64,000 bases of DNA, taken from assembly GCF_024521635.1 (NCBI RefSeq), contig NW_026250413.1, positions 372,001 through 436,000 on the forward strand. The letters run 5' to 3'. The first letter of the stretch is position 1; every line of letters begins with the position of its first letter. A model generated the notes under the pieces. That model ran no database searches, had not been told where the DNA came from, and saw only the letters and a program-made list of their open reading frames with translations. The DNA is from Tricharina praecox (lineage: Eukaryota). Positions 26,952 to 53,163 of this stretch are shown piece after piece. Position numbers and translations under genes: made by a program.

Positions 26952-27814
26952 TTTATCTTTGTGGGATTTTGTGGGTCTTTTTATTTGGGATCAAATTGCA
27001 ATGGGCTGCTGGATTGGGATGGTTGTTTTTGTACGTACCTGTATTGCGAATTTGTTGTTTGTCTGGCATGACTTGCTGTTGAATGAAGAGCTCCCATAAT
27101 ATTCATCCTGCACGTGAAATCTAAAGCTACACCTTGAGCCCATCAAGGCTATAGAATGTCTAGTTGTGGGGCGTAATCGGGCGTGAAGACGGAGAAAATC
27201 ACGATATCACTCGATCCACCAGGCTTTTCAATAGCTCGCATTTAGCCCAAAAGGGCGCTTACAGTTTCCGGCACTGTTCGAGCGCCCGGCTGGCTAGATA
27301 ACGGGCGCTCAATAGTCTAGCGCCGACGCCGCCCTGACGATCACTTCATTGCTCCCTTCTATGTATCAAACCCAGTATGTAGGCTTTTTTTGACCGATTA
27401 CCATGGTCTCTGGTCGATTACCATGGTCCATGGGCCCGCCGCCGCCCGCCGCCATTTGATGGGATTAATCCCTACGGACCGGCCGCCCTTCTGTGTTTGC
27501 TTCACAGCCTGCAGGAATTTTCGTTAATGTGTTTGTGAAAGTTGGGATGCGTGGCGTTTCTGGATAGCAGTCAGTGGTACCATACGATACCAACTTACAT
27601 AGAAAGATAGAAAGATGGGAATCAAATTTGTATAGCATCACTGTTTCTACACGACGTTGGACCGCACCAGTGATTCGGAAGTAAGAAAGCCACTTCTCAC
27701 AGTCTACAGAGCATACCTACAAGATGTGTGTACCCAAATTACGAGTGCGGCGATACGGCCGGCGTGAGCACTAGGCAATCACACCCCTGAAGTTCCCGGT
27801 GATTGTTGGTGGTC

Positions 27815-28030
27815 GCCCTGCTTCCACTCCAGCGTGTACTGGTGCCTAGTGCCTAGTGCCTTGGCGTGTGCGGGGATGTGGGGGTGCGGGGATGCGGTCT
27901 CAATCCTGGCGGCGGTCTCAGTCCTGCCCGCACCACGCCGCACTAGGCCGCCACCGTTTCTTATAAATAGCTCCTCTCTCTCCCGTCTCCTCTCCCTTCC
28001 TCTCTATCCTCTCCTCATCACATACATTTA
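27815..28030 (+). promoter_or_regulatory. Repeated promoter-like module, copy 1 (others at about 29142, 30945, 34027, 37225, 39772, 44590; truncated at about 32820)
   Basis: GCCCTGCCTTCCACCCTAGCGTGTACTGGTGCCTA, then GCGGGGATGCGG repeats, then (GCGGTCTCAATACTGGCC)n, CGCACTAGGCCGC, TATAAATAG, a CT-rich tract and CATCACATACAT. TATA-like boxes at about 27962, 29294, 31094, 34155, 37352, 39955 and 44715. Confidence 0.6.
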
Positions 28031-28561
28031 CTTTTCTTCCACACCCATCAAGCCCCCCGGGGCAATCCATTCAATCAACCCAGCGGCCACCGGTACCACA
28101 TCCAACCAGCTCAACCAGCTACCGACACTTCTCACGGCCATCGGGTTTGACCTGCGGGACATGCGGGCGTACGCCGCGGCCGCCACTACCTACGAAGACC
28201 AATGAAGACAATAATCACGATGTCGACTGGCCTCTGGTACGTGGCCCCCGATCCGATGCTGTGTTTCACACACATCGGCGGGGGGTGGGGGGGAAAGGGG
28301 GTGGGAGGGGAATCATTTCCCTTCCCTGCGAGCGGCCGCTCGCCGTCGAGTGATGGCTATAAAGCAATTAACCAACCGTTCCTGCGCCCTTTGCTGGAGG
28401 TGACGGAAGTTATCAGGTATGTAGCACCGATTAGTTACCGCCGAACACGACGAGGGATATGTAACTAATACATTGGGCTCTGTACAGACAGCAGAGCGAG
28501 GAAGCTTCGGGGCGGCAAGGTGGCACGGGTAAATCAACCCGGATGTGAGAGGGGGAGAGAG

Positions 28562-28705
28562 GACCAAAGGAGTTGGTGTTCGGTGGAAAGAATTCCTTCA
28601 GTTCTGCATTTAGTCTTTTAGATCAGCCTCCAAATTGGCGGGTATATATCTCCCATGATCTACTACTGAGGTCGAATGCAATGATGATTAAACAAAAAAA
28701 AACAA
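28562..28705 (+). terminator. Repeated 3'-end/terminator-like module, copy 1 (others at about 30215, 31868, 35190, 38465; partial at 47395 and 48895)
   Basis: GAGTTGGTGTTCGGTGGAAA...TTTTAGATCAGCCTCCAAATTGGCGGGTATATATCTGCCATGATCTACT..GGTCGAATGCAATGATGATTAAACAAAA. It contains a TATATA element and ends in an A-rich tract. The function is inferred. Confidence 0.45.
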
Positions 28706-31700
28706 TGGTACCGTCTTTCTTTGGTCGGGTATATTCTGCATGTATATACCATGAATTATCTACCTCTGTGATCAGCTACCTACTCTACCGTATCTACGTA
28801 CTCGTTCATGATTTTTGTCCATTTGTAGATGGTGACCCTGTTGAGAGAGTGTGCAGTCTGTTTCGTCCCCTTACGTTGGCCGAGTGCTGTTCGATTCTCG
28901 ATAAGAAGCTTGAATATGTGAATATTAATGACAGAGTTGTCCTGCCTTCCACCGCGTGTACTAACTGTGTAGTGAGGGGTGGAGACCGCACGGCTTGCAT
29001 CATCACTCGGGATGAAGCAAGAATGCTACATACCGTACTCCCTACAGATGCCAGAAGGCATACCAAATTTGTACCAAAATCACGGGTGCGGCGAAAGTTA
29101 CAGGCAGCGTGGGCTCAGATATGTGAATGCTAACGACAGAGCCGCCCTGCCTTCCACCCTAGCGTGTACTGGTACCTAATGCCTAGGCGTGTGCGGGGAT
29201 GTGAGGTGCGGGGATGCGGTCTCGATACTGGCCGCGGTCTCAATACTGACCGCACACGCCGCACCACGCCGCACTAGGCCGCCCACACTTTCTGATAAAT
29301 AGCTCCTCTTACTTCCCTCTCCTTCCCCTTCCTCTCTATCCTCTCCTCATCACATACATCTACTTCACTTTCACACTCAACAAACCCCTCGGGGCAATCC
29401 GTTCAATCAACCCAACAACCAGTCCCATGCGGACATAAGCTGCCGCCACCGTCGCCCAGGCCGCCGCGAACCGATGATGTGTTTCATGCACATTGGCGGA
29501 ATCATTTCGACTACGACACTATAAACCAACCGTTCCTGCGCCCTTTGCTGGCGGTAACTGTGAAGTTACCAGGTATGTAGCACCGATTAGTTACCAACAA
29601 ACACGACGAAGGATATGCATCTAATACATTGGGCTCTATACAGACAGCAGAACGAGGAAGCGTGGGGGAGGAAAGGGCTAGGGCCCTGCCAACGGATCGG
29701 AAATCTTCTTGCATCTTTACCAAAATAACATCGACCAGAAGGAGCAACAACGACGGCGAACTGTGGACATGACCCTTGGGGGGCTCGGGGAATAATCCCT
29801 TGGAGCGGGGTTCGGAGTGGGCATCTCTTGATGCCCCTTCCGTCCCATCTCCCCGCCAGATGTCGGCTCTTCTCGCGAATAGTAGCGCTGCTCGCGGTCG
29901 AGCCACGATTACGACCCTTTCGGTCAACCGCTCGTCCGCCCTTTGCTGGCGCTTCCTAGGTATGTAGCACCGCACCGACTACCACCGAACGCGATGAGGG
30001 ACATGCATCTAATACAATGGGTTTCATACAGAGAGCGGAGCATCAGGAGAAAAAAAAATTCCGTTGAGTGCGTGTAGGCGGTGCTGACTTTGGTAACGCT
30101 GGGAACGCCCTCGAGCCATTGCATAGAGTGAATGCCTAGTCATTTCCAGATATGAACGACCAATGGCCAGTCTATTTCGTGTGTGTGTGTGTTGGGGGGG
30201 GGGGGGGTGGTGGAGGACCAAGAGAGTTGGTGTTCGGTGGAAAAAATTTCTTCGGTTCTGCATTTTGTCTTTTAGATCAGCCTCCAAATTGGCGGGTATA
30301 TACCTGCCATGATCTACTAAGGTCGAATGCAATGATGATTAAACAAAACAACAATCCCTTAGATCGTCAAAAATATTTCACCGTGACGGGGGGCGAGTGG
30401 GGGACACAGGGGGTAGTCCAAACTTGGTTACTAGCAAGGGACCGCCCACCAGCCGGCTGAAGGAGGCTGGCCTGTGGTGCGGGCATAGGTGGTGCGGCGG
30501 CGGAGGCGGCGAGGGATCTCTTAGTCGGCCGCACAGTCACCTCACGATACCACTTGACATCGGCCCGACATCATAACCTACACACTAGTTGCCTCCACCC
30601 GCCTGTCTCTCCACCCCCCCGTGCCGTAGCTCAACGCGGTGGAAACAATCAAATGGATAGGGCTCTAGCCGCCTCTTGCAGTAATATGCTCTGACCAGCC
30701 CGATCAGCCCCGAAAGGTCACTACCGACTATTCGGTTGCCGATCGCGCTGTCAGACTGTCAGCCTGCAGTAGCTCTCTGACTGGGTTCATTTCGGTTTTG
30801 AGAGGCTGAGGAGTTTGAACTTTGAAGGCAAAGCGTCTGTTGTGCTGGCTAGTGGTCCGCTTTACTTGTCTATAGAAGTCCTAATGAGATATTCGTGGAT
30901 ATTATAGTTGTCCTGAAGGCTGAAGTTGCCAGTTGCCGGTGGTCGCCATGCCTTTCACTCTGACGTGTACTAGTGTTTAGTTCCTCGGCGTGTGCGGGAT
31001 GCGGAGATGCCGGGATGCCGGGATGCGGTCTCAGTACTGGCTGCGGTCTCAATACTGACCGCACCACGCCGCACTAGGCCGCCCCCGCTTTCTTATAAAT
31101 ATCTCCTCTTCTCCCGTCTCCTCTCCATTCCTCTCTCTCCTTCCCTCATCACATACATCAAGCTCAACAACAACTATCGATAAATGCCTCCGGGCAATCT
31201 GTTAAATCAACCCAACCGCCAGCCCCATGCGGGCATAAGCCGCCGCCGCCGTCGCCCCGGCCGCGAACCGATGATGTGTTTCACGCACATCGGCGGAATC
31301 ATTTCGACTACGATACTATCAACCAATCGCTCCTGCGCCCTTTGCTGGCGGTAACTGTGAAGTTACCAGGTATGTAGCACCGACTATGTAACTACCACCG
31401 AGCGAGACGAGGGACATGCATCTAATTTAATCGGCTCCGTATAGACAGCGGAATGAGGAAGTGTCGGCGAGGCAAGGGCTAGGGCCCTGCCAACGGATCG
31501 GAGATCTTTCTCCATCTGTACCAAAATAACATTGACCAGAAAGAGCAATAAGTGGGGTGACTTGGGGGTGTTTGACCCTGGGGGGCGAGGGGTGGGGGCG
31601 GGGGAATAATCCCTTGAGCGGGGTTCGGAGTGAGCATCTTTTGTTGCCCCCCGTGGCCAGCAATCAACCGCTCGTCCGGCCTTTGCGGGCGGTAACCAGG

Positions 31701-32940
31701 TATGTAGCACCGGCTACCACCGAACGCGATGAGAGACATGAATCTAATACATTGGGTCCCATACAGATAGCGGAAGGAGGAAACGTCGGAGAGGCAAGGG
31801 AAAGGCGAAGGTGATGACCTTGTGTGGAGTCTGGAGACGGCGCAGGCATGAGAAAATGATTCCTTGAGTTCTGCGTTTGGTCTTTTAGATCAGCCTCCAA
31901 ATTGGCGGGTATATATCTGCCATGATCTACTAGGTCGAATGCAATGATGATTAAACAAAACAAAAACAATGGTACCGTCTTTCTTTAGTCGGAGTCTGTT
32001 CTGCGTGTATATACCATAAATTCTCTGCCTCTGATCAGCTGCCTACCCTAACGTACCTGTTTTCTGTACTCGTTCATGATTCTTATTTGTTTGTAGATGG
32101 TGACCCTGCTGAGAGAGTACATATATTGTCTGTTGATGGTCGCTTCCAGACTTCCAGTGCCCGTGTGGTGACTGCGCACTCCGCATCATAACTATGTAAG
32201 CCTCTTGGTAGTAGCCCATGGACTTTGTGACCATTCCAGTGGAAGACCGGGTAGTGTGGTGCTTCCGCTTTATCCAGGAGAGTATTGCCGTCTCCACTGA
32301 GTCCTGACCGATCCGATTAGCCCCAGAAGGTCACGGTTCACCTTTCGTTTGCCGATCGCACTGCCAGCCTCGCCTGGTTTCCTTTCGGAAGGCTGAAGGG
32401 TTGGAAGGCGAAGCGTCTGTACCGGCTGTTGGGCTGGGCTGTGGCCGGCTATACTTATAGCCTAGTAGTCCCGACTCCAGCGATGGGCAATGCGGCATCC
32501 CTAGATATCATGGTTGTCGTGACTCCCGCCGTTATCGGAGGTTGTCCTGGCTTCCGCTGTCGCCGTACCAACCACCTCGAGCTCGACGTAACTTACGTTC
32601 CGTCTGGTGGGTCCATCTGCCTACAAATAGTCTGCGATTCGCCACCGTATACATAGAACCCGCTTAGGTACCTGCCCTGCCACAGCACTGAGCGCTCTTG
32701 GCTACATATCTAAGTACCTGTGTCTGGTGCAGTGTCACGCCGATGGGGACATATGTTTTGTCCCCTTCCGTTACATACCAGAGTGCTTTTATATTCTTGG
32801 TAAGAATTCTAATGATAGGGTCGCCCTGTCTTCCACCACGGTGTGTAGTTCTTGGGCGTGAGCGGGGCTGCGAGTAATCTTAGATTCACTAATCGGTCGG
32901 ATACCTAGAGGAAGCGGATGGGCCTCGGGCGAGTACCCAA

Positions 32941-33576
32941 AGGGTCCTCAAAATTCTGGAATGGCGGTTGGTTGGACTTTAGCGTCATTCCGGTAGTGCA
33001 AAAAATGGAACCAATCAAAAGGCTCATAACCAGCGTTCAATTTGAGGGACCGGTTGGGCGACTGGTTGAGAGATAGTTGGATGGAATGATCATTCTGGAC
33101 GTCCGCCCTTACAGACAACATTCCACACGCATTCAGACAATAGTTACCCCCAATACAAATATTTACTCAGAATAAGGTGAGAAAATGCGCAGATTTACCA
33201 GGTTGTTGTAATCTATCACGAATGACAGATAGATCTTTTGCGAAAGGGTCTGTATCATCGTTACGGTCGAAAATTAAGTTTATAATTTGTAATCCTCATA
33301 CATTTGTGTTGATCGTTTGAAGCCTGTATTTTTTTCCGTGATCCATGGGGCATAATGTCGGAGGGGCATGATGTCGGAGGTTTGATAGTATCCGAAGTAC
33401 AAAAGTTTCTCAAGTTACCGTAGCAACGAGTGTTCGAGCACTTCATTCCTGGCCTATCCCTATAACGGCACAAGAGGTTACGTCAGCCAATCACACTGCT
33501 TTTGCACCACACCTCCGTCCCCGTTTAGGCACGCTAAAGTGCCACCAATTGCCCTTCCGCGAATTTCGAGGACCCT
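32941..33576. mobile_element. Non-autonomous TIR element (MITE-like), about 636 bp
   Basis: Left end AGGGTCCTCAAAATTCTGGAATGGCGGTTGGTTGGACTTTAGCGT versus reverse complement of the right end AGGGTCCTCGAAATTCGCGGAAGGGCAATTGGTGGCACTTTAGCGT. The TSD is unclear. Confidence 0.7.
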
Positions 33577-34419
33577 CATACTACATACTCCGTCGACCTG
33601 TGTGATTATCTGCCCTTCAGGCAGGAAGGATCGCTCTCCTCGCACACTGGCGGAGGTTATGTTTCAGTCTTGCAGGTATGCATAGGCTTTTTTTGTGGCC
33701 GATTACCTTGGGCGCCTTTTTGCGGTCGATCACCATGGGGCCATTGCTGTGTTTGGGAAAGCTGGTATCGTTTCTAGACAGCAGTGGTATCATACATAGG
33801 CATGAAAATTTGTATGGAATCACACTCTCTACACGACGTTGGACCGCACCAGTGATTCACTCTATGTGGGCATGGCGTCGTGACTCGGGATGAAGCAAGA
33901 AAGCTACATACCGTACTCCCTACAGATTCCGGAATGCATACCTTATTTGTGCCAAAATCACGAGTGCGGCGATACTTGTTACAAGCAGCGTGGGCTCGGA
34001 TATGTGATTACATACTAACGACAGAGTTGCCTTGCCTTCCACCCTAGCGTGTACTGGTGCCTATATATTTCCTCGGCGTGCGCGGGGATGCAGCGATGCG
34101 GGGATGCGGGCTCAACACCGCCCGCACTAGGCCGCACCTAGCCCGCCATTTCCACATAAATAGCTCCTCTCTCTCCTCTCTCTCTCTTTCTCTCCCCATC
34201 ACATACATCATCCTCAACATCAACACTCGATAAAACCCGCTTTCAAATCAAAGGCTCATCTCTCCCCTCTTCACTCTTTCTCCTCACCTCACCACCAACC
34301 CTCGACAAACCCCTTGGTGGGTCGTCTTACGCCGCCACCAGGAATGTGGTACCGCTCGGGCGGAATTATTTCCCCCCAGTAGTAGGGTGCCGGTGGCGGC
34401 GGTGGCGGCTAACCGCTGC

Positions 34420-34615
34420 CTTCATATTCGAGGCTCGGTATCGATTGATGATTCAACGGGCGTGGGAAGGCGACAAACCGTTCGGAATGGTGCTTCCCAA
34501 CTTCGTTAGCAACGCAGCAGGAGACGCGAGATCAAGAAGTGGGGTTACCGGGATGATTACCTCGTCGAACGAGTCGACGATTTCCCTCTTGCCAACGAGG
34601 AAGCATTCGAACAGT
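34420..34615 (+). pseudogene. Captured fragment of a LON substrate-binding-domain gene (LONRF-type RING/LON protein), copy in unit 4
   Basis: FIFEARYRLMIQRAWEGDKPFGMVLPN, then after a deletion IKKWGYRDDYL..VERVDDFPLANEEAFE. This matches the family pattern LHIFEPRYRLMIRR...FGMV...GY..GK.ER.DD. Confidence 0.8.
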
Positions 34616-34641
34616 CATGCCTAGGAATTTCCCAGGGACAT

Positions 34642-34885
34642 CCGTGACGTTGGCGAGATCACTGAGCTCTCCGGATGCGACTACCTCTCCATCTCCCCCA
34701 ACCTCCTCGAGGAGCTCTTCAACAGTACGTCGACAACGAGGCTGAGTTCCGCTTCGACCTCAATGAGGACCAGATGGCCACCGAGAAGCTTAGCCAGGGT
34801 ATCCGTGGTTTCGCTGGTGAGTGATCTCTCTGCCCCTCCTCACACGTACACTACTAACACTTACCCAGCCGACGCCATCACCCTC
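34642..34885 (+). pseudogene. TAL1: Captured C-terminal fragment of transaldolase including an intron (34817-34868)
   Basis: RDVGEITELSGCDYLSISPNLLEELFNS / YVDNEAEFRFDLNEDQMATEKLSQGIRGFA-[GTGAGT..CTAAC..CAG]-ADAITL, the classic eukaryotic transaldolase C-terminal sequence. Confidence 0.92.
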
Positions 34886-35858
34886 CGAACCCCCTCCCCC
34901 CCCCCCCCCCCCCCCCCCCCCGCCCGGCGACTAGCCGGGCATGGCACAAATCGTGCCATTGGGCGGAATTATTTTCCCCCGGGGGCGGAGGCGGCCGAGA
35001 TCATTGATGGTCCGTTCCTCCGCCCTTTGCTAGCGGTGACAGGTTACCAGGTATGTAGCACTGATCAACTACCACCAAAGGGGACGAGGGATGGAAATGT
35101 ATCTAATACGTTGGGCTCCATACAGACAGCGAAACGCGGAAGCGTCGGGGTGGCAAGGGTAAATCATGGGTGTGAGAGGGTGGGAGGAGGACCAAAAGAG
35201 TTGGTGTTCGGTGGAAAAAATTCCTTCAATTCTGTGTTCTTTTAGATCAGTCTACAAGTTGGCGGATATATACTCATGTAATCCGCCATGATCTACTATG
35301 GCCGAATGCAATGATGATAAAACAAACACAAAAAAAGGTACCGCCTCTCTTTGGTCGGGTTCTGCATTTATATACCATAAATTCTCCGCCTCTGTGATTA
35401 CATTAGAGTTGCCTATCAGCGGAAGTAGTAGTTGCGGCGGGAGAGTGAAGCAGTTACGGCGGAAGAAGGAGCTATATGAGCGATGAGCATCAGCGAGAGT
35501 AGCAATTGCGGCGGGAGGGGGAACAGCAGTTGCATCGGCAGTAGCAGTAGTAGTTGCGGCGAGAATAGTAGATGTGGTGAAGAAGCATGAGTACAGAATT
35601 GAGGCCCATTGGTAGAGGTGGAGGTATGAGGAGAAGAGACGAGACTTGACAACTGCAACTTTAAAGCGATATTCAACAGATGCTATTCTTATCCGGGCGG
35701 GCGTGAAACTACAGCTTCATCGCTGTCTCTGTTCCAGACGATGGCAGCTAGTGCCACAGATCCTCCATCCCATCGTTTGCCTGGTTAGATCTGGTTGACA
35801 GACCATTGACAAACGTTTGGGTTGCTGAAACGTGACGACAACTGTGGAAAAATGCTAA

Positions 35859-36449
35859 GGCCCAATTTGGTTCGCAGCTGCAGTTTAGAAATGTGCATTT
35901 TGGCGAGTTGAAGGTTGCCCAAGCTGCAGTTCCAAACTCTCAACTTCCCTGATGACCGTTCGGCAACCCAGATGTTCGACAGCACCACCCTTTTTTCTCT
36001 GACTTCGGGGCTAGTTACGCCAGAAAACCATAACTACATAAATAGCTTTTTACAGCGGCGACGTGGCCCTTCCTGTCACTTAGGGAATTTCCCCTCATAT
36101 CTCACAACAGCGGCTCCTCCTCTGCGCCGTACCAGCAAGTAACCCCTCCTATCCACAGTCGCAGCGGAGGAACCATAGGAGGTGGCCGGTGTCGGACATC
36201 TTACATAGGCGTAATGAAGGGGGACTATGGCTGGGTCGACTACAGGGCGATGCTGGCATGTACTACTGGTGATTGTCCATAGAGTTTATTTGTACTTACT
36301 GTGGCTCAGTCGACAATCTGCAGTTTCTCGAGTTGTCAACTTGGGGTGGTGTGTCAAACAGGCACCCATTCGGGGAAGTTGACGGTTCGAAACTGCAGCT
36401 CACTTTTTGTGTGGTAGATTCAAACTGCAGCTGCGAACCAAACTGGGCC
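35859..36449. mobile_element. PIF/Harbinger (Tourist-like) MITE, about 591 bp, nested in a larger insertion (about 35400-36570)
   Basis: TIR GGCCCAATTTGGTTCGCAGCTGCAGTTT versus GGCCCAGTTTGGTTCGCAGCTGCAGTTT (27/28 match), flanked by TAA and TTA. Confidence 0.8.
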
Positions 36450-37670
36450 TTAGATGCAACAGTTGCGCAATAGTTGCGCAATACCGCGGGGCCGCTTGTG
36501 AAATCTAATGATCGCGCAATCATTTTCTTACACACCGCTCACGTTTAAAAACCCCCCCTTTTTTTACAAGGGTACCTACTATACCGTATCTACCGTACTC
36601 GTTCATGATTTTGTGTGTAGACGGTGACCCTGCTGAGAGGGTGTGCAGCGAAGTCCGTTTCACCCCCTTCTGTTGCCCGAGTGCTTTTCGATTCTCTATA
36701 AGAAACTTGAATATGTGAATATTAATGAGAGAGTTGCCCTGCCTTCCACCCCGACGTGTACCTACTATAGTGGGGGGGGAGACCGCACTATTTCATAGAA
36801 CATCACTCGGAGCTTATGGTGTCTGTCGTCCGCGGAATCCGGATGGGAGTATCACACGTACCATTCCGTTGGCCTGTGTTATTATCTCAGATGCCTTTCA
36901 GCCGGAAAGGATCGCTCTTCTGAGTCTTCATACAGCGGAGGAGGTTGCGTTTCGGTCTTGTATGCATAGGCTCTTTTTGTGGTCGATTACTATGGGCCCG
37001 CCGCCCTTCGATGTGTTTAATCCCTATCATCTACGGACCTTCTGTGTAAGATGGGAAGATGGGAATGAATTCTTGTATGTAGGAAGTATGTATGGCATCA
37101 CATTTTCTTCACGATGTTGGACCACACCAGCGACTCACTTTACGTATGGCGTCGGGACTCGGGATGAAGTCGAAATCGATAGTGATAGGCAGCGTGAGCT
37201 CGGATGTGATTACTCACGATAGAGTCGCCCTTCGCGCCACCCTAGCGTGTACCGGTGCCTATGCACTTCTTCAGCGTGTGCGGGGATGCGGGATGCGGGG
37301 ATGCGGGCTAAACCCGCCCGCACTAGGCCGCACTAGGCCGCCCCACTTTTTTATAAATAGCTCCTCTCTCTCCTCTCTTCTCCCTTCATCTCTCTCCTCT
37401 CCTCATCAAATACATCATCCTCAACATCAACACTCGATAAAACCCGCTTTCAAATCAAAGGCTCCTCTCTCTCCCATTTTCACTCTTTCTCCCTCACCTC
37501 ACCACCAACCCTCGACAAACCCCTTGGTGGGTCGTCTTACGCCGCCACCAGGAATATGGTACCGCTCGGGTGGAATTATTTCCACCCGAGTAGTAGGGTG
37601 CCGGTGGCGGCGTTGGCGGCAGATAACCGCTGCTCTGCCCTTTGCTGGCGGTCACTAGGTATGTAGCACC

Positions 37671-37998
37671 ACACCGACGACCATGCTTTTCATATTCGAG
37701 GCTCGGTATCGATTGCTGATTCAACAGTTCGGAATGGTGCTTCCAAACTTCGTTAGCAACGGGGTAGGAGACGCGGAGGGGACTCCATTCATGGAGTATG
37801 GAACGATGCTGCAGATCGAATCCATATAAGTTTATGCGGACGGTCGCAGCCATATCTGGACGGTCGGCGTGTCCAAATTCAAGATCAAGAAGTGGGGTTA
37901 CCGGGATGATTACCTCATCGCTAAAGTCGAACGAGTCGACGATTTCCCTCTTGCCAACGAGGAAGCATTCGAACAGTCATGCCTAGGAATTTCCCAGG
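37671..37998 (+). pseudogene. Captured LON substrate-binding-domain fragment, copy in unit 5
   Basis: TPTTMLFIFEARYRLLIQ..FGMVLPN...PFMEYGTMLQIESI..ADGRSHIWTVGVSKFKIKKWGYRDDYLIAKVERVDDFPLANEEAFE, with frame disruptions. Confidence 0.85.
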
Positions 37999-38001
37999 GA
38001 C

Positions 38002-38132
38002 ATCCGCAACGTTGGCGAGATCATTGAGCTCTCCGTGCCCAAGAAGTTGTCGTCCGAGGATGCCACAAACCTTGACCTCGAGAAGCTCAGCTACGTCGAC
38101 AACGAGGCCGAGTTCTGCTTCGCCCTCAATGA
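38002..38132 (+). pseudogene. TAL1: Captured transaldolase fragment, copy in unit 5
   Basis: RNVGEIIELS / VPKKLSSEDATNLDLEKLSYVDNEAEFCFALNE. Confidence 0.88.
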
Positions 38133-38427
38133 ACCCAGCCCCAAGCGGGCATACGCCGCCGCCAGAGGGGGTCGTGGACATCACCATGACCGAACCGTTC
38201 GGGCGGGATTATTTCCCCCCCGCGTAGTAGGGTTGCGGCGGCGGCGGTGGTTACTAACCGCTGCTCCGCCCTTTGCTGGCGGTTACCAGGTATGTAGCAC
38301 CGCAGCGACTACCACTGAACGCGATGAGGGACATGAATCTAATATATTGAGTTCCATATAGCAGAAGAAAGATGAAGCTTCGGGGCGGCCAGGGTGGCAC
38401 GGGTAAATCAACCATGTGTGTGTGTGT

Positions 38428-38461
<34 letters not shown>

Positions 38462-40529
38462 GGAGGACCAAGAGAGTTGGTGTTCGGTGGAAAAAATTTC
38501 TTCGGTTCTGCATTTTGTCTTTTAGATCAGCCTCCAAATTGGCGGGTATATATCTGCCATGATCTACTACCTAGGTCGAATGCAATGATGATTAAACAAA
38601 AACAAAAAAGATACCGCGTTTCTTTGGTCGGGTTCTACATGTACAAGGTATGTATATACCAGAATTCATCTGCCTATGTGATCAGGTAGGTACTTTACCG
38701 CATTTACCTTACTCGTTCATGATTTTGTTTGTAGATGGTGACCCTGCTAAGAGTGAGTTTGCTGTCTATTGGTGGCCGCTTCCGGTGCCTGTGTGGTGAC
38801 TGCGCACTCGGTATCACCGGCCTCTTGGTTTAGTAGTAGCCCATGTGGACTTTGTCACTTTGCGACCTTTCTATAGTGGTGGGAGCCGTTTTGCCACATG
38901 TCCGCACATCTGATCGCTCCAGGGTTCAGCTTCCGTCCAAAACCCGCTGGTGAACATTAGTGGTCCTGGGGGATGGAGGGCTGGAGGGCTGGAGGGCTGG
39001 AGGGCTTCGGCTTCTGCGCGGGTGTTAGCTTTTTACTCTTTGCCCATGAGGAGACCGTGCAGTCTATAATGCTGCTTCCGCTTTATATAGATTTAGTATG
39101 AACGTTCGCTGGCGGCAGAATCCCCACGGCCGCATACATACCGCCGTCCTCTGACCAGCCCGATCAGTCCCGGAATAGGATGGTCAAAATACCTAGTATT
39201 TGTCGTATTGGACATCCACCTCGACGTGACTGTCAAGAGAAGGGGTATCATGCCATCCCGTTTACCTCGGTAATTGTCTGCCTTTCGGCATGGAATGATC
39301 GTTCTTCTCGCACAGCGGCGGAGGCTTCATTTCGGCCTTGTATGCATAGGCATTTCTTGTGGCCGATTACCATGAGCGCTTTTTTATGGCCGATTAGCGT
39401 GGGCCCGCCGCACTTTGATGTGTTTAATCCCTATCATCTACAGACCTTGTGCGTGTTTGAGTCGTAACCTACGGGTATTTTCTTTCATGTGTTTGAGAAA
39501 GTTGATATCGTTTCTCGATAGCAGCCAGTGGTATCATACGTTACGGTACATAAGAAGATGGGAATGATTGAAATTTGTATGGACTGCATCACATTTTCTC
39601 CACGAAGTTGGGCCTCGTCGGCGATTCATTCTATGTACGTAAGGCGTCGGAGTGAAGCAAGAAAGCTACATACTCCCCACAGAGGGCACACCTACCTAAG
39701 CATCAAAATGACGAGTGTGGCGATAGTTACAGGCAGCGTGAATTCGGATATGTGATTACTAATGACTGAGTTGTTCTGCCTTCCATTCCGGCGTGTACTA
39801 GTTAGTGCCTAGTTCCTCGGCGTGTGCGGCGATGTGGGCATGCGGGGGTGCGGTCTCAATACTGGCCGCGGTCTCAGTCCTGGCCGCGGTCTCAGTTCTG
39901 CCCGTGGTCTCAGTCCTGCCCGCACCACGCCGCACTAGGCCACCCACATTTTCTTTTAAATAGCTCCTCTCTCCCCTCCCTTCTCTCTCTATCCTCTCTC
40001 TCTCCTCACCATCAACATCAACACCCGACAAACCCCTCGGTAGGCATCCAACTCAATCTCAACGAACCCAGCGCCATGCGGGCATACGCCGCCGCCGCCG
40101 CGGCACGACACGATGATGTCGCCAACATTTTTTCCCTTCGATCGCCGGTGCCGCGCAACCCCACCGGCATCAGCCCTACTACCGAGCCGTGGAGTGCGAT
40201 TAGCGATGCCATCAAGGCTGGCGGCTACTTCCCATTGTTCGACATGGGCGTAGGTACCAAGGTTTCGCTTCGGGCGATGCCAACACCGATGCATATGCGC
40301 AGCCGCGCTGCATTGCCTAATCGAGCAGGGGTACCACGTTGCCCTTTGCTAATCGTTCGCCAAGAGCATGGTATGTCCTCTAACTACCCGGTAATCGTGC
40401 GAAATGTCTATGCTAATAAGATGATATGCTGCAGGGTCTACACAGTGAGTGTGTAAGCGCCGTTTAAATCCTCGCCGAATTCGCCGAGGAGGAAGAGACG
40501 AAGCGCGCGGACTCTGAGGATCAAGATCC

Positions 40530-41160
40530 TTGTCCGCCCCATGGGCCATGGGACAGGGACCCACACCGCAGCAGACGCCACAGAACGTGGTACAACGGCT
40601 CGGTGGTCCGTCACCTTCCCCGGCCTCGGTCCTAGTGCAGAACAGAGCACCTCAGCCGATGGCGAACGACTTGATACGGACTGCTCAGCAGTACGAGAAC
40701 CAACAGGCGGCGGCGGGGTCCCTTGTCAACGGTGGCGTGGAAGTGTTTCCCGTATTGAATCGGGCCCCGACCGCCACGTTCACCCCTGCGCAGCAGTGCC
40801 AGTTGGAACAGCAACGGCGCCATGCTATGTTACAGAACGAGCGGATGGGCCAAGCCTGTGCGCACGCGAGCAAGTTCCCGCCGAACGGCTCGCCGCCTCA
40901 GCCCCCGCTTGCGGCTCTCAACCGACCGATACCACGCCCCAACCCGCGGTGCCGCGTTCCCACCACCGACAACGCAGCCGGGTGGCGCCACAGCACAGCA
41001 ACCGGCAGCTCAGCGGCAATTTGTCAGCCTGACCCCGGAAACGCTAAGAAATTTCCCTCCGCATGTAGTTGAGAAGATCAGACGTCTCCCCCCCGGAGCA
41101 GTTGAGGAATTTCTTGGATAAGTTTGAGCGTCACCAAGCGCAACAGAGGTAGCAACAACC
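40530..41160 (+). pseudogene. Unidentified Q/P-rich coding fragment inserted in unit 6
   Basis: Open 180-codon frame (MGQGPTPQQTPQNVVQRLGGPSPSPAS...) followed by a frameshifted continuation (FVSLTPETLRNFPPHVVEKIRRLPPGAVEEFL). It is unique in the window and bounded by cassette repeats. Confidence 0.5.
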
Positions 41161-41470
41161 TGCTTTGCCAGTCGTTGGCCAAGAACATGGTTAGTACTCT
41201 ACCCGGTAATCCTGCGGGATTTCTATGCGCTTCTAGTTTGTTCGAGTATGCTAACATGATGATGAGAGTCGACACGCCGATAGAGACTAGGATAAAGAAT
41301 ATCCTCAAGGCTCTAATGAAGTTGAAAGACGAGGAGACGATGCAGGGTCAATACGGTGAGCGTGTAGACGCCTTCGCCGAATCCGCCGAGGAGAAGAAAC
41401 GATTCTTCCATCCTCGGCGGATTCTCCGAGGAGTAGGAGAAGAAGCACATCGACTCTCGGATCAAGATCC

Positions 41471-41790
41471 ACGGGTAATAATGCGCTGGGAAATACCACT
41501 CCAATGGAGGTGGACACACCCGTCACTGGTTCATGTATGCCTTTCGCTACCCTTAATTCTTATTTATCCGCAAGAACTGACTGATATCACTAGCCATCAA
41601 CCAAGCTAATCCGGAGATGCTTGCGGATGACAACCACGGCGAATACTTACAAGCTGCCGATCAACAATTTCAACGCCGGCTACTTGCTCAAGACCATCTA
41701 CCAGCGCATCATCAATTTTGAACGACAAGGGCCAAGGCCCCAACAAACAATGGCTCAGGAATTGGTCGATTGCACCACTACCCACCCACC
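41471..41790 (+). pseudogene. Unidentified intron-containing coding fragment in unit 6
   Basis: RVIMRWEIPLQWRWTHPSLVH-[GTATGC 41535..CTGAC..TAG 41593]-PSTKLIRRCLRMTTTANTYKLPINNFNAGYLLKTIYQRIINFERQ reads through in frame. Confidence 0.55.
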
Positions 41791-42129
41791 TAGAAGCATC
41801 GATGCGCCGCGGCGCACGATACCTTCGTTAGATTCTCCGTTCGGAGCACTACCAGCACCTCAGGGCCAGATTGGTTGCCGCCCTTTGCTGGCGGCAACTC
41901 GATAGGGACGCAGCATCCCCGCTGCCCCGCAGAATAAGTACGAGTCAGCGACTGTCTTTTGGGCCATGTGGGCTGGCGTTGCGTCCCCTCGCCAGACTGC
42001 CAGGCTGCTGTGGCTCTCCCATAATTTGGGGAGCTCGAGGCGAGCTGCGGACCGTGGTCCGTGGTTCGGAGGAGAAGCAGCAGCACATATGTGCTGTCTG
42101 TCGTCCGATTCCCGTCTTCCTTGATATTT

Positions 42130-42500
42130 TCTTTCCGTTTTTGCTTTCTGTTTTTGCTTTCTGTCTTTGCTTTTCTGTTATTGCTTTCTGTTTTTGCTTT
42201 CTGTTTTTGTTTTCTGTTTTTGCTGCGTGTTTCTGTTCCTGTTTCTGTTCATCTGTTTTTGTTTTCTGTTTTTGTTTTCTGTTGTTTCTGTCTTCGTGTC
42301 TATCGGGTTGAGTGGAGAGGGTTTAGTTGAAAGGTTCTGGCAGAGAGGGTCTGGCGGGGAGAGTTGGGTGGAGAGTGTCGAGCGGACGGTTGAGAAGGCC
42401 AGCGACAAGATGACTGACAAGTCGGTTGAGAAGGCGGTTCACCGGGATGTCGAGCGGGCGGTTGAGCGGGAGATTAAGCGGAGAGTTTTGGTGGAGGAAG
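42130..42500. repeat. (TTTTGCTTTCTG)n minisatellite followed by 12-bp period GTTGAGCGGGCG repeats; also at about 45835-45980 and 46975-47300
   Basis: Seen directly; part of the 3' region of units 6 and 7. Confidence 0.85.
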
Positions 42501-42918
42501 ATAACTAGTACTGTACCCACTTGTATTGCTTTTTCCGTCAAAATAGGAACCTATCTCGCCCACTTTGGCTGCCCTGGCTGAACAGACAGTTCTGCCAGTT
42601 TTCCCGGGAACAACTGCCAGACATATCCAAACTACCTGGGAACTGACAGCCTCTGTTCCCAACTGAACCGGGAATAAAATCAACCAGAACTGAACTGTTT
42701 AAACCAGTGTTTCCATTTCAACCGACTAACTGTTGGAGGGTGATAGATTCTCTGCCCCTGGGATCAGCTACTTACCTAATCTACCGTATCTATGAGGTAG
42801 GTACTCGTTCATGATTTTTGTTTGTTCGTAGATGGTGACCCTGTTGAGAGAGTGTGCTGTCTAGACAGTTGGTGGCCGCTTCCAGTGCCCGTGCGGTGAC
42901 TGCACAGTTGGCATCATA

Positions 42919-44068
42919 TCCCCTACGTGTCCGGCGTTTGTAAATTTGTTGCACCGCACTAAGTTGGAGAGAGAGAGAGAGATCTTCCTGTTTTATTTCA
43001 CATGCAGCCCATCTAGACTAGGTATGACGAACCCACGAACTCCGTTTCCTGCCCGCCCTGGCCAGTCGAGGTGAAATCCCCGATACCGACCAGTCCGATA
43101 CGGCTCCCCACTTCCCCTGCCCATCTGCCTCGGGCAGACACAAGCAAAAGCAAAAAGTTCATTGACAGTAAAGACCGGTATGGGCCTGCATGCCCGCTCC
43201 TCCTGCTGCCCCTCGCCTCTCTCCCCCGTCTTTCGCTTCCGCTCCACACAACTTATCACCGTGTGTCCTCCTCTCCGACTTCCTCGCATCGGCCGCAGAC
43301 GCAGTACCCTGCTGGGCACTCTTGCTCTGCCCCCAATGCGATGCTCGCCTCCTCCTCATCCTCCTCCTCCCGATCTGGTGGATCTTTTCTCCCCACATCC
43401 GTCGTTCCTAGAAACTCTAGGATTGCCTCGCTGCACCGCTGCAGCGCTCGTCGGCGAACAACTCTGCTATCGAATACCTCTCTTTTCTTCTCTCCGTCTC
43501 CTTCCTAACCTTTGGCGCACTAAGTTGGCCCAATTTGGACCGATGCAGAAAGGTTGGCAACGAGTGATATCAAAAGCATTCGGCGAGTGGACTCTTCCGT
43601 AGAGCAACTTGTGTAAGTTAGTAGAAACAGGCTCTCTACCATTATGTATCTAGCGACATACATTCTCACTTCGCTCCTCCCGAAGCTTTTCCAACTATGA
43701 CAGTGTAGTAGTACCAGTAGAGTCCGTCGCCGGTGTAGTAGTATCCGCCGGTGGCCCGTCTGCAACATGACTGCCTATGTTTGACTCGAGTCTCAGCCCA
43801 ATAACCTCTGTATCAGCGCTGCTGCTCATTTCTTTGGTATTGGCACCGAGGATGTTTGAACTAGCGGTGGTCAGACTGCAGAGGCGGCGACAGCGACAGT
43901 CATGGTACCTAGCAACCGTAACTGGTAGCAATCGTGACTGTACCAGCACAGCTGCAACCAGACTGATCGAAACAGTGAGCTGTGTAGTCGTGTAGACGCA
44001 CTGCCGCCTCCTAATCGGGCATACTTTGTAGTGCAACAAATTTACACACGCCCCGGACATGTAGGGAA
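42919..44068. mobile_element. Non-autonomous Tc1/mariner-type element, 1150 bp, TA target-site duplication
   Basis: TA|TCCCCTACGTGTCCGGCGTTTGTAAATTTGTTGCAC ... GTGCAACAAATTTACACACGCCCCGGACATGTAGGGAA|TA. Removing it restores GCATCATA-GGCCTCTTGG, as in the uninterrupted linker copies at about 32183 and 38811. No transposase is recognised inside. Confidence 0.88.
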
Positions 44069-45050
44069 TAGGCCTCTTGGTAGTAGTTACATCACCCATC
44101 TAAATTTTGTCACTTTTGACCATTCCAGTGGGAGCCGTTTTACCATTTCTCTGCACATCCGTTCGCTCCAGATTCCGTCCGAAACCCGTCCGAAACCCGC
44201 CTGTGTATATTCATATCTAGTCCTGGGGGGCCTGGGGCCTTTAGCCCTTGCCCGAGTATTTGCTTTGTGCTCTTCGTTCATGAAGGCTGTGCAGTCCGGT
44301 GCTTCCGCTTCCGCTTTATCTAGATCTAGATCTAGTATCGCCGTCCTGTGACTGGGCCGATTAGCGCACCATTCGCGTGCCGATCACGCTAACAGCCTAT
44401 CAGCCCCCAGCAGCTCCCTGCCCGGGTTCCTTCCGGAAGGCTGAGGAGTGTGAACTTTGATAGCGAAGCGTCTGCTAGGCTAGCCAGTGGCCGGCTTTAC
44501 TTAGTATAATAGTCCTAATGAGGTAGGTATTCCTAGATATTATAATCTATGGTTGTCCTGGAGGCTGAAGTTGCCGGTTGCTGGTAGACGCCCTGCCTTC
44601 CACCCTAGGGTGTACTGGTGCCTAGTTGCTCGGCGTGTGCGGGGATGCGGAGGATGCGGGCTTAACCCCGTCCGCACCAGGCCGCACCAGGCCGCACCTA
44701 GCCCGCCATTTTCTTATAAATAGCTCCTCTCTCTGCCCTCCCCTCTCTCTCTTTCTCTATCCTCATCATCAACATCAACACCTGACAATCCCCTTGACGG
44801 GCATCCACCTCATATGCGCAGCCGCGCTGCGTTAATCGAGCAGGGGCACCACGTTGCCCTTTGCTAATCATTCGCCAAGAACATGGCATGCACTCTAACT
44901 ACCCGGTAATCGTGTGAAATGTCTATGCGCTTCTATAGACCTAGTTAGAGTATGCTAATATGATGATATGATGCAGGGTCTACACGGTGAGCGTGTAGCT
45001 GCCGTCCAAATCCTCGCGGAATCCGCCGAGGAGGAGGAGAAGAAGCGCAT

Positions 45051-45447
45051 TGCCGGCTCGCTTTTCTCTCTTGCAACTGGCAAATCCCTTCTCTACCAGG
45101 CGGCAACTTCCTACTTCCTCCAGTCCTTCGTAACCCAGACCATTTCGTTGAAGTTGCAAAACTACTTCTACCACCGTCTGATGGCGATAATTCCGGATCC
45201 AACCCATGGCGAAAAGCCGACTACGTTCCAGGGCATCAACAATGACCGGATGTCTATCGACATTGAGATGAATTTTGAGGCAGTAGGACCATCAGCACTC
45301 ACGATCGAGGACACGGCGAACTCCTCGCACGCGGGGGGCTACACAGCCACCATCCCCTTCGACCCAGTGACAGGCGACACCATCACGCCCTCACCCGAGG
45401 TGACGACCGATCCCCTGGAGCTCGAAACCGACAGCGAAGCCTCGCGG
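45051..45447 (+). pseudogene. Unidentified coding fragment inserted in unit 7, in frame with the cassette exon
   Basis: Stop-free stretch of about 130 codons (AGSLFSLATGKSLLYQAATSYFLQSF...DPLELETDSEAS) between two copies of the MMQGLHGERV..EEEKKR repeat. Confidence 0.55.
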
Positions 45448-45643
45448 TGCTTTGCCAGTCGTTGGCCAACAATATGGTTAGTACTCTACCCAGTAATCGT
45501 GCGAGATTTCTATGCAGTTCTAGTTTGTTCGAGTATGCTAACATGATGATGATATGATGCAGGGTCTACACGGTGAGCGTGTAGCTGCCATCCAAATCCT
45601 CGCGGAATCCGCCGAGGAGGAAGAGAAGAAACGATTCTTCCAT

Positions 45644-45704
45644 ACGGCGCGACATGAAATATGGAACCTTCAGGACTGGAATGCAGGCCACGCCTGTCAA
45701 TGGA
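45644..45704 (+). pseudogene. Probable short glycoside hydrolase family 16 fragment
   Basis: RRDMKYGTFRTGMQATPVNG resembles the fungal GH16 segment D(I/M)xYG(S/T)FRxxMxxTxVNGT that precedes the catalytic ExDxE motif. It is only about 20 codons long. Confidence 0.45.
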
Positions 45705-45979
45705 AAGTTTGGGGAGCTCGACGGTCTGGCGCTGGCGAGCGGGACCGAGGCGAGCCGCGGACCGTGGTCCGCGGCTCGGTGGAGGAGCAGCAGCACTGAT
45801 GTGCTGTCTGTCGTCCGATTCCCGTCTTCCTTGCTATTTTTCTTTCTGTTTTTGCTTTCCGTTTTTGCTTTCCGTTTTTGCTTTCTGTTTTGCTTTCTGT
45901 TTTTGCTTTCTGTTTATGCTTTCTGTTTTTGTTTTTGTCTGTCGGGTTGAGTGGATGAGTGGAAGAGGGTTGAGCGGCG

Positions 45980-46350
45980 AGGCATGGTTGCGGGTGGGTG
46001 GAAACTATCCGCAAGACTATCCTGACGCGAAAGTCCGGCAGTTCTTCAGAGGCGTAAGTTGGCTCTAATCTTCCCGCTCCAAACGCCCTGCAAGTTGCAG
46101 CTACTGACAATCGATACAGTGCGGTACGAACACAAAAACAGCCTGAAGGTTGTCAACGAGAAGAATGGAAATTCCGCCACGGCTACTTCCCGAGAGAGAG
46201 TCTACTCCCAGCCACTATCGAGTTTGACGCCAAGGATTCTGTTCTTACGGCCTAGACGACAGCCATGAAGATGATCGACGGTTTCGCATTGAGAGACAAG
46301 TCCGCGCTGGGTCGACTCGGATGCTCTACCTTACCAGAGCTTGGGCCGTT
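45980..46350 (+). pseudogene. Unidentified intron-containing fragment in unit 7
   Basis: Unique sequence with GTAAGT(46054)..CTGAC..CAG(46119), lying between two copies of the GCGAGCGGGACCGAGGCGAGCCG repeat. Confidence 0.45.
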
Positions 46351-46439
46351 TAGCGAGCGGGACCGAGGCGAGCCGCGGACCGTGGTCCGTGTTCCGTGGT
46401 CCGGTGGCAACGCAGCAGCTCATATGTGCTGTCTGTCTT

Positions 46440-46842
46440 CAAAGGCGCAAGATGGCGCCGAGCACTGTCGCCCGACATCGACGTACCGATTGAGCGTCTT
46501 TACGCTCCCTCCCGCGAACGTCTTGTTCCGTTGTCACGAGTTATCTCGTGCACAGCATTACGACCATCTTCCAGAGCGGGACTCGACCAACTACGCAGCG
46601 TTTACACGCCTGGACTGCATACGAGCACGCAGAATGAAGGCGAAGATTATTGCTGGGCGTCCGATTGATCCTGCCGTGTGGGATGAGCGTGCTCTCGGTC
46701 TCGCTCAATTCACTGAAGACGAGCGAGCGGGAGTATTCGGCACAATCTATTGGATAGTCCTATTTTCATAGGAAATGTGGTCCTGGCCCTTGGATGACTG
46801 GTGCGTTCCCGGGCCAGGCTGGCAGTTTGGTAGACCGTCGAG
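46440..46842 (+). pseudogene. Unidentified coding fragment in unit 7
   Basis: Protein-like frame ...RARRMKAKIIAGRPIDPAVWDERALGLAQFTEDERAGVFGTIYWIVLFS*EMWSWPLDDWCVPGPG with a single stop, bounded by cassette repeats. Confidence 0.45.
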
Positions 46843-47620
46843 ATGGCTCTCCCAAAGTTCGAGGAGCTCGACGGTCTGGCCGCTGGCGAGCGGGACCGAA
46901 GCGAGCCGTGGTCCGTGGTCCGGGTTCGGTGGAGGAGCAGCAGCACTTATGTGCTGTCTATCGTTCGGTGGTGTTCTTGCTTTCTTTCCATTTCTTACAT
47001 TCGGTTTTTGCTTTCTGTTTTTGCTGCGTGTTTCTGTTCCTGTTTCTGTTCATCTGTTTTTGCTTTCTGTTTTTGCTTTCTGTTTTTGCTTTCCATTTCT
47101 GCTTTTCTGTCTATCGGGTTGAGTGGAGAGGGTTTAGTTGAAAGGTTCTGGCGGAGAGGGTCTGGTGGGGAGGGTTAGGTGGAGAGTGTTGAGCGGGCGG
47201 TTGAGAAGGCCAGCGACAAGACGATTGACAAGGCGGTTGAGATGGAGTTTGAGCGGGTGGTTGAGCGGGTGGTTGAGCGGAGTGTTTCGGTGGAGGAGGA
47301 TTGACTCGCGGGGACTCGGGGAGGGCTGGACGGAGAGCGGCCAGCGGCCAGTGGTCGGAGACAGCCGGGTGGAAAAGGATATCTACTTATATAATCTGCC
47401 ATGATCTACTACATACATAAGGTCGAATGCAATGATAATTAAACAACAAAAACAAAACAAAAAGTGTGTCGTTGGCAAAACGTTCCGTTGTTCAGGAGAA
47501 TGCTTGGAGGATGCACGAATACCACGAGCGAGGGAGTGGATTTCTGACATGGCTGGGCTTGGTTGAGCTTGGTTACAGGAGGTGGACCGGACGGGACGAC
47601 AACTGGACTATGATAACTAA

Positions 47621-52600: not shown

Positions 52601-53131
52601 CCGGTGCTGGCACTGGCGCGAGCGTCGGCATCTGCATCGGCATCTGCGTCGGCATCGGCATCGGCATCGGCACTGGCACTGGCACTGGCACTTGCGCTGG
52701 TACTGGTACCGGTACTGGCACTGGCGTCGGCGTTGGTGTCTGTATTGGCGTTGGCGCTGGCGTTGACACTGGTGTTGGTACCACGATTGGCGTAGGCGTG
52801 CTGCTGGATTGCAATGGCATCACTGGCGGGGTACCTACTGCACCAGCCGCAGGCTTCTGCAGGGGTGTCTGCGGCGGCGGGAGTACAGGGCCAAAGATTG
52901 GAGGAGGAACAGAACCGCGGTTAACATTGTCGGTATCGATCTCCATCGGATCATTGAGCAGAGGTCTGGACATGTCGTAGCGCTTCTTTGGGAGTGTAGC
53001 AGGAGCTGGCGCCGGAGGCATCGTCTCACCGGCCTTGATCTTACGATCGGCCTCGTCGGCAATTTCCTTGTACTCAGACTTTCCACTTTCTACCTGGCGG
53101 GTATAAAAGTTCCGCACCTAGATATTCATTT

Positions 53132-53163
<32 letters not shown>

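Follow-up and report, generated by a model that had tools for sequence, protein, structure and literature searches.

A decayed LON-domain/transaldolase chimera with a retained transaldolase intron in a tandem array of transcribed units in Tricharina praecox

The Tricharina praecox DNA analysed here, called the window throughout, is a stretch of 64,000 nucleotides that contains a 20-kb tandem array of seven diverged units, designated A to G (Table 1). The units, which are probably lineage-specific, follow a common plan. Upstream short repeats and a TATAAATAG box are followed by a CT-rich leader and a first exon ending in GCCCTTTGCTGGCGG...CAG. Next come a roughly 70-nt intron (GTATGTAGCACC...TCTAATAC...ACAG) and a second exon, and behind GGTCGAATGCAATGATGAT the unit closes with an A-rich tail of the TTAAAC(A)n type (family D10; motif map). 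Self-BLAST showed that the spacers between the units are homologous as well. Since the promoter and the upstream flank were also duplicated together with the units, the array has grown by segmental DNA duplication. Its neighbours are ordinary genes, namely HSF, phosphofructokinase, Rad51-like, RRM/R3H, HAM1-like and a large Myb-domain protein, and the array occupies the interval between the last two. The reverse strand directly beyond the downstream end of the array (49644-57135) contains two very long open reading frames of 1156 and 1313 codons, one of which has a Myb domain and one of which is packed with in-frame repeats of 9-15 nt.

Table 1. Coordinates of the array, of unit D with its insert and of the sister copy in unit E
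Feature	Position in the window	Strand	Description	Evidence
Tandem array	27400..47600	+	seven diverged units	self-BLAST, repeat families D4-D17, motif map
Array units (kb)	A 27.4-28.9, B 28.9-30.4, C 30.7-32.2, D 33.6-35.4, E 36.6-38.9, F 39.25-42.9, G 44.4-47.5	+		
Unit D, upstream repeats and TATA-like box	34004..34197	+	box ATAAATAGCTCC at 34156-34167; common to A, B, C, E, F, G	families D6, D9, D13, D15
Unit D, leader and first, truncated exon-1 module	34198..34419	+	ends in AACCGCTGC; 5' splice site of unit E deleted, E 37634-37687 absent from D	
LON-domain gene fragment	34420..34644	+	two frames, P0001 residues ~296-334 and 369-411; deletions of 106 nt and 9 nt relative to unit E	tblastn, Pfam
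Transaldolase exon fragment	34640..34816	+	~residues 228-308 of 324; lacks ~60 middle nt present in unit E and in the X5 contig	tblastn, PDB, X5 record 27 joints 38007>34646 and 34725>38031
Retained native transaldolase intron	34817..34868	+	52 nt, phase 1; GT 34817-18, CTAAC 34854-58, AG 34867-68	
Transaldolase exon 3' of the intron (ADAITLR)	34869..34889	+	homology stops here	translation; X5 loose end at 34816
Poly-C tract, junction back to unit sequence	34890..34925	+		Tandem Repeats Finder
Unit D, second, 5'-truncated exon 1	34926..35050	+	leader remnant, GGCGGAATTATTT at 34962, module GCCCTTTGCTAGCG at 35022	34961-35370 vs 38201-38643
Unit D, intron	35051..35125	+	GTATGT..TCTAATAC..ACAG; module in units A-E	9 GGTATGTAGCAC sites
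Unit D, exon 2 and A-rich tail	35126..35336	+	GGCCGAATGCAATGATGAT at 35300	families D10, D17; motif map
Sister LON and transaldolase chimera, unit E	37689..38132	+	LON almost colinear, with one stop and a loss of 21 nt; transaldolase without another part of its middle than in D and without the sequence that follows LNE	

The coding potential of the units was examined with protein and RNA families. No ORF of at least 130 aa in the array had a Pfam family at E<=0.001, and the 174 ORFs of at least 62 aa between 27.3 and 48.7 kb gave weak sub-threshold Pfam matches only. Rfam at gathering thresholds found nothing in the whole window. When the threshold was relaxed to E<=1 between 27 and 48 kb, a plant miRNA family and SOX2OT appeared as two weak matches, which were judged to be chance. 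ARAGORN found no tRNA and hence no tRNA-derived SINE head. Inspection by eye showed that neither the frame of a small protein gene (MRAY..., GGIIS..., NRCSALCWR) nor the stem of a conserved hairpin RNA was kept across the units.

Several further repeats were observed in the array. A MITE-like element of about 600 bp (35855-36453) with 32-nt inverted repeats that are 97% complementary lies between D and E, and its summed contig depth in the X1 metagenome run was 41-82, against about 5-20 nearby. Runs of 33 G (38428-38460) and about 15 G (30193-30207) occupy an equivalent place in exon 2 of units E and B, respectively, and a run of 36 C marks the transition from transaldolase back to unit sequence in D. 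A 13-nt repeat (TTTGCTTTCTGTT) forms arrays in units F and G (42127-42283, 45837-45935 and 47000-47110), each with a palindromic GGACCGTGGTCC element before it and a short ORF after it, which in F ends in VLVEEDN. In the tail of unit E, a core of about 55 nt (38552-38607, ...TCTACTA..GGTCGAATGCAATGATGATTAAAC) had a summed X1 depth of 250 at 38570 and a bin mean of 205, compared with 35 in the promoter bin. Many contigs diverged on both sides of this core, with loose ends behind 38602/38607 and an agreement of 0.43-0.51, and the core may be the end of a dispersed repeat.

Within unit D, the unit sequence is interrupted by pieces of two other genes. The first piece originates from a RING+LON-domain gene and corresponds to residues ~296-411 of a 506-residue T. 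praecox protein (P0001), whose source label is PUA-like/RING+LON protein and which has RING fingers and PF02190. In a large protein search, P0001 showed 90% identity over 92% of a 65-aa LON query. By tblastn, its residues 295-334 were aligned to 34412-34531 and its residues 369-410 to 34528-34644 (joint E=7.2e-32), and residues 285-411 were found again at 37659-38009 (E=4.8e-61), where unit E carries a sister copy. The Pfam profile LON_substr_bdg was matched at 34409-34531 (E=0.091) and at 37830-38024 (E=1.6e-4), both below the gathering score and with colinear profile positions. When 34300-34900 was read in three frames, the LON part appeared as FIFEARYRLMIQRAWEGDKPFGMVLPNFVSNAAGDA and, after a frame shift, as IKKWGYRDDYLVERVDDFPLANEEAFEQSCLGISQGHP. 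The full-length LON-domain protein of T. praecox is on record, and the donor is therefore intact elsewhere. GenBank and RefSeq each list it under two accessions, from two contigs, and two identical copies of the donor gene therefore seem to exist. The DNA contigs X2 record 15 and X3 record 22 were colinear across the LON range without gaps, which makes this range uninformative on intron retention.

The second piece (34640-34889, forward strand) is derived from the last third of a transaldolase. Residues 154-192 of a transaldolase protein (P0006) were aligned to 34640-34750 and residues 204-236 to 34723-34821 (E=2.9e-26, tblastn), and a PDB search with phmmer matched residues 289-320 of yeast YGR043C at E=1.6e-6. 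Judged by their E-values, the LON and the transaldolase matches are far above chance level for a 64-kb target. The three-frame reading gave RDVGEITELSGCDYLSISPNLLEELFNS, a frame shift, YVDNEAEFRFDLNEDQMATEKLSQGIRGFA, a 52-nt stretch of the form GT...CTAAC...AG and finally ADAITLR. When this stretch was removed, the frame GFA-ADAITLR was obtained. The homology ends at ADAITLR, about nine residues short of the C-terminus, and poly-C follows there, not poly(A).

The original prediction had described the 52-nt stretch as a GT-AG intron of the donor with a CTAAC branch point. We found the intron at a conserved native position, and two independent lines of comparison place it there. First, an X5 contig with a depth of 2138 fits 38031-38109 and 34744-34816, leaves the window exactly at 34816 and continues with ADAITLRKII, as a spliced message does. 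DNA contigs of X1 and X2 with the same joint fit 79 letters and reach six letters into the intron. That X5 is RNA-like is a guess based on this one contig spliced at the transaldolase intron. Second, 12 transaldolase proteins were compared. Eight of them (P0006, P0007, P0014, P0015, P0017, P0018, P0022 and P0027) leave the homology right after GFA, KFA or GFN+G, as expected for proteins reading into the intron, and their contigs are 2.2-685 kb long. P0006 and P0014 end in GFAGE like the window, and P0018 has 18 foreign residues followed by ADAVTLK. The other four (P0008, P0010, P0016 and P0021) read GFAAD or KFAAD and come from two transcript-sized contigs and two NCBI gene models. No protein named as the T. 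praecox transaldolase occurred among 120 listed proteins. The objection that the native gene might have no intron at GFA|AD thus fails. Moreover, P0006 is a single open frame from residue 75 up to the intron, so the captured transaldolase range contains no further native intron. Since the sole native intron in this range was kept, the claim that the copies were not made from processed mRNA is well supported. The transaldolase range is the only captured range within which a native intron is demonstrated.

The fusion of a LON-domain piece to the C-terminal part of a transaldolase was confirmed by tblastn, Pfam and the PDB search. A spacer of up to about 30 bp had been proposed between the two pieces. 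This spacer does not exist, as the letters in question are LON sequence that reads EQSCLGISQGHP in the window and EQSCLGVNLGHPH in the LON-domain protein. In both copies the LON and transaldolase alignments share 5 nt (34640-34644 and 38005-38009, tblastn). On these protein alignments, the junction appears to be direct, with a few bases of microhomology.

We then compared the insert in unit D with its sister copy in unit E. By self-BLAST, 34421-34528 corresponds to 37689-37775 and 34529-34766 to 37882-38132. In LON, D is short of 106+9 nt that E retains, and E is short of 21 nt that D retains. In transaldolase, about 56 nt are present in E only and about 60 nt in D only, and the entire intron-bearing 3' part is likewise kept in D and missing in E. 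A third and fuller chimera was found in X5 (record 27, 591 nt, depth 343). It contains the LON of E, the transaldolase part of D, six letters, the part of E and then unit sequence, and its fit ends at 38289, the final base before the unit GTATGT and the last exon base of the sister copy. The LON/transaldolase junction is identical in all three versions. We conclude from these results that the chimera arose once, before D, E and the X5 version split, and that the copy at 34420 is derived from it and has decayed.

The later history of the copies is visible in their differences. In windows of 60 columns, D and E are 93-100% identical over 34227-34667 and 62-88% identical elsewhere, and the tail of E is 96.8% identical to that of unit B. 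This mosaic of identity points to a later exchange of segments between units. At least seven indels of at least 9 nt separate D from E, deletions of 54, 106, 9 and 21 nt among them, and inspection of the alignment by eye placed several of the deletions between short repeats (TGCT or AAC, for example). The many differing deletions show that the copies undergo deletion-biased decay. Both copies contain stops and frameshifts, and their LON and transaldolase parts are mutually out of frame. The stretch from 34420 to 34885 is non-coding and decaying, and it is still on a promoter-driven transcript. When the LON of E was compared with the putative native message, 23 of 207 letters differed, and the transaldolase of D differed from its putative native message in 3 of the 73 letters shown, so the capture was not recent. 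RIP was considered as the source of the divergence between D and E and was rejected, as 19 of the 39 substitutions are transitions and no strong bias is present. The sequence itself is independently supported by a 243-nt X1 contig that covers 34316-34558 with zero differences.

In both D and E, the first 29 nt of the unit intron precede the insert. A second, 5'-truncated leader and exon 1 follow behind the insert (37561-37683 vs 38194-38314, 82% identity in self-BLAST), and about 280 bp of unit sequence lie on each side of it. Units B and C also have a doubled exon-1/intron module with a filler of about 110-230 nt between the copies (29678-29906 and 31479-31650). This architecture is like that of D and E, yet the break point differs and lies in exon 2.

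Pieces of host genes are also present in units F and G. Unit F contains in sense orientation a piece of an aspartate aminotransferase (PDB 1yaa residues 176-216, E=9.8e-4; Pfam E=0.061), which is in frame behind the ATG of the unit. A 4E-BP-like piece in antisense orientation (VALGDAQTYPRNSSTAPGGRRLIFSTTCGG, 41013-41198, reverse strand) directly adjoins the next splice module of unit F; its Pfam match had E=1.3e-4 and 22.3 bits against a cut-off of 24, and its PDB match E=0.026. In unit G, 400 nt in sense orientation are derived from a membrane protein that is conserved in fungi (P0127, 69% identity, E=7.6e-44; tblastn on the window 45049-45447, E=1.8e-50), and this piece is in frame with the unit G ORF. 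Four of the five identified pieces are thus in sense and one, the 4E-BP-like piece, in antisense orientation, which is not expected of a single cDNA.

In T. praecox, a gene model for a 260-aa hypothetical protein has the unit G ORF as its first exon. The model maps to the window in three exons with 99.4%, 100% and 97.8% identity and uses 46054-46119 as an intron. Retained introns had been proposed in two inserts other than the LON/transaldolase one (41535-41593 and 46054-46119), and at least one of the two stretches is treated as an intron in the T. praecox annotation. Between 44971 and 46252, the model combines a unit exon with the fragment captured from the membrane-protein gene, with a micro-exon of 10 nt and with additional pieces. 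We regard it as a candidate for a young chimeric gene. A weak PDB match of the unit G ORF to Ktr (E=0.0074, with no stretch passing alone) was judged to be chance. The ORF at 46256-46768 gave no PDB match and no usable match in the ESM Atlas.

The window was also searched for signatures of mobile elements. None of the 38 large ORFs across the window belongs to a transposase, helicase or reverse transcriptase family. Inverted repeats flanking the units were not detected; the search returned only poly-C/poly-G pairs and the separate 600-bp MITE-like element. Helitron termini (5'-TC, a hairpin with CTRR-3', insertion at A|T) were looked for by eye without independent copies for comparison, and none was consistent among the seven units, CTAG near the tail being seen in units C and E only. 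Target-site duplications of 10-20 bp were not seen by eye around the units or the insert, where the shared tandem flanks would hide them. Metagenome contigs were scanned for exact patterns of the tail core and of the module plus 5' splice site, with no match for either.

Taken together, a DNA-level event fits best, because the intron was kept, the junction is direct, unrelated pieces stand in series with one of them inverted, unit sequence is duplicated on both flanks and neither a transposon protein nor a terminal repeat was found. With moderate confidence, we propose that the pieces were captured as DNA at a break in the unit intron, by end-joining or by microhomology template switching, and that tandem duplication, gene conversion and small deletions followed. 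The original prediction of a capture at the DNA level is favoured by this evidence but not proven, since an unspliced pre-mRNA template would keep the intron too. The intron by itself does not decide between a DNA and an unspliced RNA template. What speaks against the DNA-level reading is that four of the five pieces share the direction of transcription of the unit and that the A-rich tail hints at a retroposon-like 3' end. Two unrelated templates were likely joined in series, as had been suggested, because other units of the array also carry unrelated gene pieces serially, one of them antisense.

The repair mechanism and the order of events can be reconstructed only conditionally. In the ancestor of D and E, a break or stalled copying would have occurred inside the unit intron, about 29 nt beyond the 5' splice site. 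It would have been repaired at the DNA level, either by end-joining of captured fragments or by microhomology-mediated template switching, the process known as FoSTeS/MMBIR. About 350 bp of the RING+LON gene would have been inserted first and then, via a few shared bases, about 320 bp of the transaldolase gene with its intron. Copying may then have picked up again in the unit leader, which would account for the unit sequence flanking the insert on both sides. The unit would subsequently have been duplicated in tandem, and gene conversion or unequal crossing-over would have exchanged segments between it and neighbouring units. Finally, each copy would have lost different stretches of 9-165 bp by small deletions, often flanked by microhomology.

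Templated or captured DNA insertions at double-strand breaks and templated sequence insertion polymorphisms are reported (PMC5110952, PMC11724301). They resemble the present case in several respects. Several pieces, each a few hundred bp long and taken from distant loci, enter one site in series and in either orientation. Their junctions are direct with little or no homology, sequence around the insert is duplicated locally, and the donors remain intact. In the T. praecox array, intact donors are indicated by the LON-domain protein record and by spliced transaldolase and LON-like X5 contigs, and we also found the direct junction, the unspliced structure and both orientations. The homologous units and spacers and the mosaic identity are those of a tandem segmental duplication with gene conversion. 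The array differs from templated insertions in that the captures are repeated in one tandem, transcribed fungal locus and were then inherited and duplicated, and in that their mechanism is inferred.

An origin at the RNA level is unlikely, though it accounts for part of the data. Starting at the A-rich 3' end of the polyA RNA of the unit, a reverse transcriptase would jump to unspliced transaldolase pre-mRNA, to LON RNA and back to unspliced unit RNA, and the cDNA would recombine into a resident unit. The common sense orientation of the LON, transaldolase, aminotransferase and membrane-protein pieces is consistent with such jumps, as is the start of the high-identity block of D and E near the likely transcription start. 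The A-rich unit tails point in the same direction. With a core that is much more abundant than the promoter in the X1 metagenome run, and with sequences beyond it that disagree, the tail hints at a retroposon-like 3' end. However, the transaldolase intron is retained and the start of the unit's own intron is present upstream of the insert. The switches would have to land inside the donor RNAs and not at their 3' ends, and one piece of unit F is antisense. In addition, the window contains no reverse transcriptase, no target-site duplication is visible at the insert, where both flanks are unit sequence, and the duplication of promoter and upstream flank with the units speaks for growth of the array by DNA duplication.

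The array was also compared with known RNA-derived chimeras and copies. In mammals, U6-L1 is a LINE-mediated chimeric retrogene. A processed pseudogene is, like the transaldolase piece, a partial non-functional copy of a housekeeping gene, but here the intron was kept, and the fragment lies within the donor and does not end in poly(A). In another ascomycete, a LINE has produced chimeras by template switching (PMC2104539). The MINE/WEIRD-MGL chimeras of Magnaporthe are described there as intronless, all in sense, dispersed and flanked by target duplications of 10-20 bp (PMC2104539). They share with our case an ascomycete host, transcription, an A-rich 3' end and a highly expressed non-coding RNA without a known function to which copies of other transcripts are joined. 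In contrast, the array in T. praecox has kept an intron, contains an antisense piece and consists of tandem copies with promoters.

We consider it improbable that the units are non-autonomous gene-capturing transposons, Helitron-like or of another transduplicating DNA element, that were arrayed in tandem. Helitron capture in maize and in Pleurotus and other fungi likewise yields serial unrelated fragments with introns and chimeric spliced transcripts that are driven from within the element. The units of the array carry such fragments mostly in one orientation, are transcribed and spliced to chimeric RNAs with one annotated protein, and have a tail core that is multi-copy. Capture by Helitrons in fungi is reported in PMC4289320. 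However, the window provides no Rep/helicase or transposase partner (0/38 ORFs), no CTRR end or hairpin that was consistent by eye and no terminal inverted repeats around the units. The units are tandem duplicates, and their homologous spacers suit segmental duplication better than repeated insertion. The metagenome contig scans with two exact patterns yielded no further copies by which the ends could be defined. Pack-MULE and other TIR transduplications also place intron-bearing gene fragments inside a repeated non-coding element, but no terminal inverted repeats flank the units of the array, and short target duplications were not seen by eye around them.

The array could also be a functional locus that actively acquires sequence, its promoter-driven transcript family repeatedly taking up pieces of host genes next to duplicated splice modules and producing chimeric genes or regulatory RNAs. 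Duplicated unit modules do flank each capture, unit ORFs share their frame with the aminotransferase and the membrane-protein piece, and unit G is annotated as a T. praecox protein. The fuller chimera had a depth of 343 in the RNA-like X5, against 351 for the putative native LON transcript, but contig depth is a poor measure of expression. We nevertheless find such a locus very improbable, because D and E contain stops, frameshifts and differing deletions with the LON and transaldolase parts out of frame, and no dedicated enzyme is encoded nearby. The least probable explanation is that the LON-domain gene and the transaldolase are genomic neighbours, of which one segment was duplicated into the unit and fused by an internal deletion of about 2 kb: the copies are deletion-prone, and a tandem pair would give the N-terminal LON part followed by the C-terminal transaldolase part on the same strand, but all three versions (D, E and X5 record 27) have one and the same junction, unrelated genes are joined serially in other units as well, one of them inverted, and the prior chance that two given genes adjoin is low.

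The array is a clean and datable fungal case in which gene pieces were copied with genomic structure, and not with that of processed mRNA, into a transcribed locus that has no recognisable transposon. For annotation, the LON- and transaldolase-like matches in this region are to be read as pseudogene fragments. The array as a whole is larger and of more interest than the single chimera; it took up pieces several times and already contains one annotated chimeric gene model. As a speculation to which we give rather little weight, the array could be an undescribed capture locus of a Pezizomycete, with a new Helitron-like or retro-element or transcription-coupled template switching as the carrier, and could yield chimeric genes or regulatory RNAs. 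A mobile carrier, if one were found, would represent a new element of Pezizomycetes that captures genes. If the captures are products of repair or replication, the array would be a natural record of templated insertion and exon shuffling.
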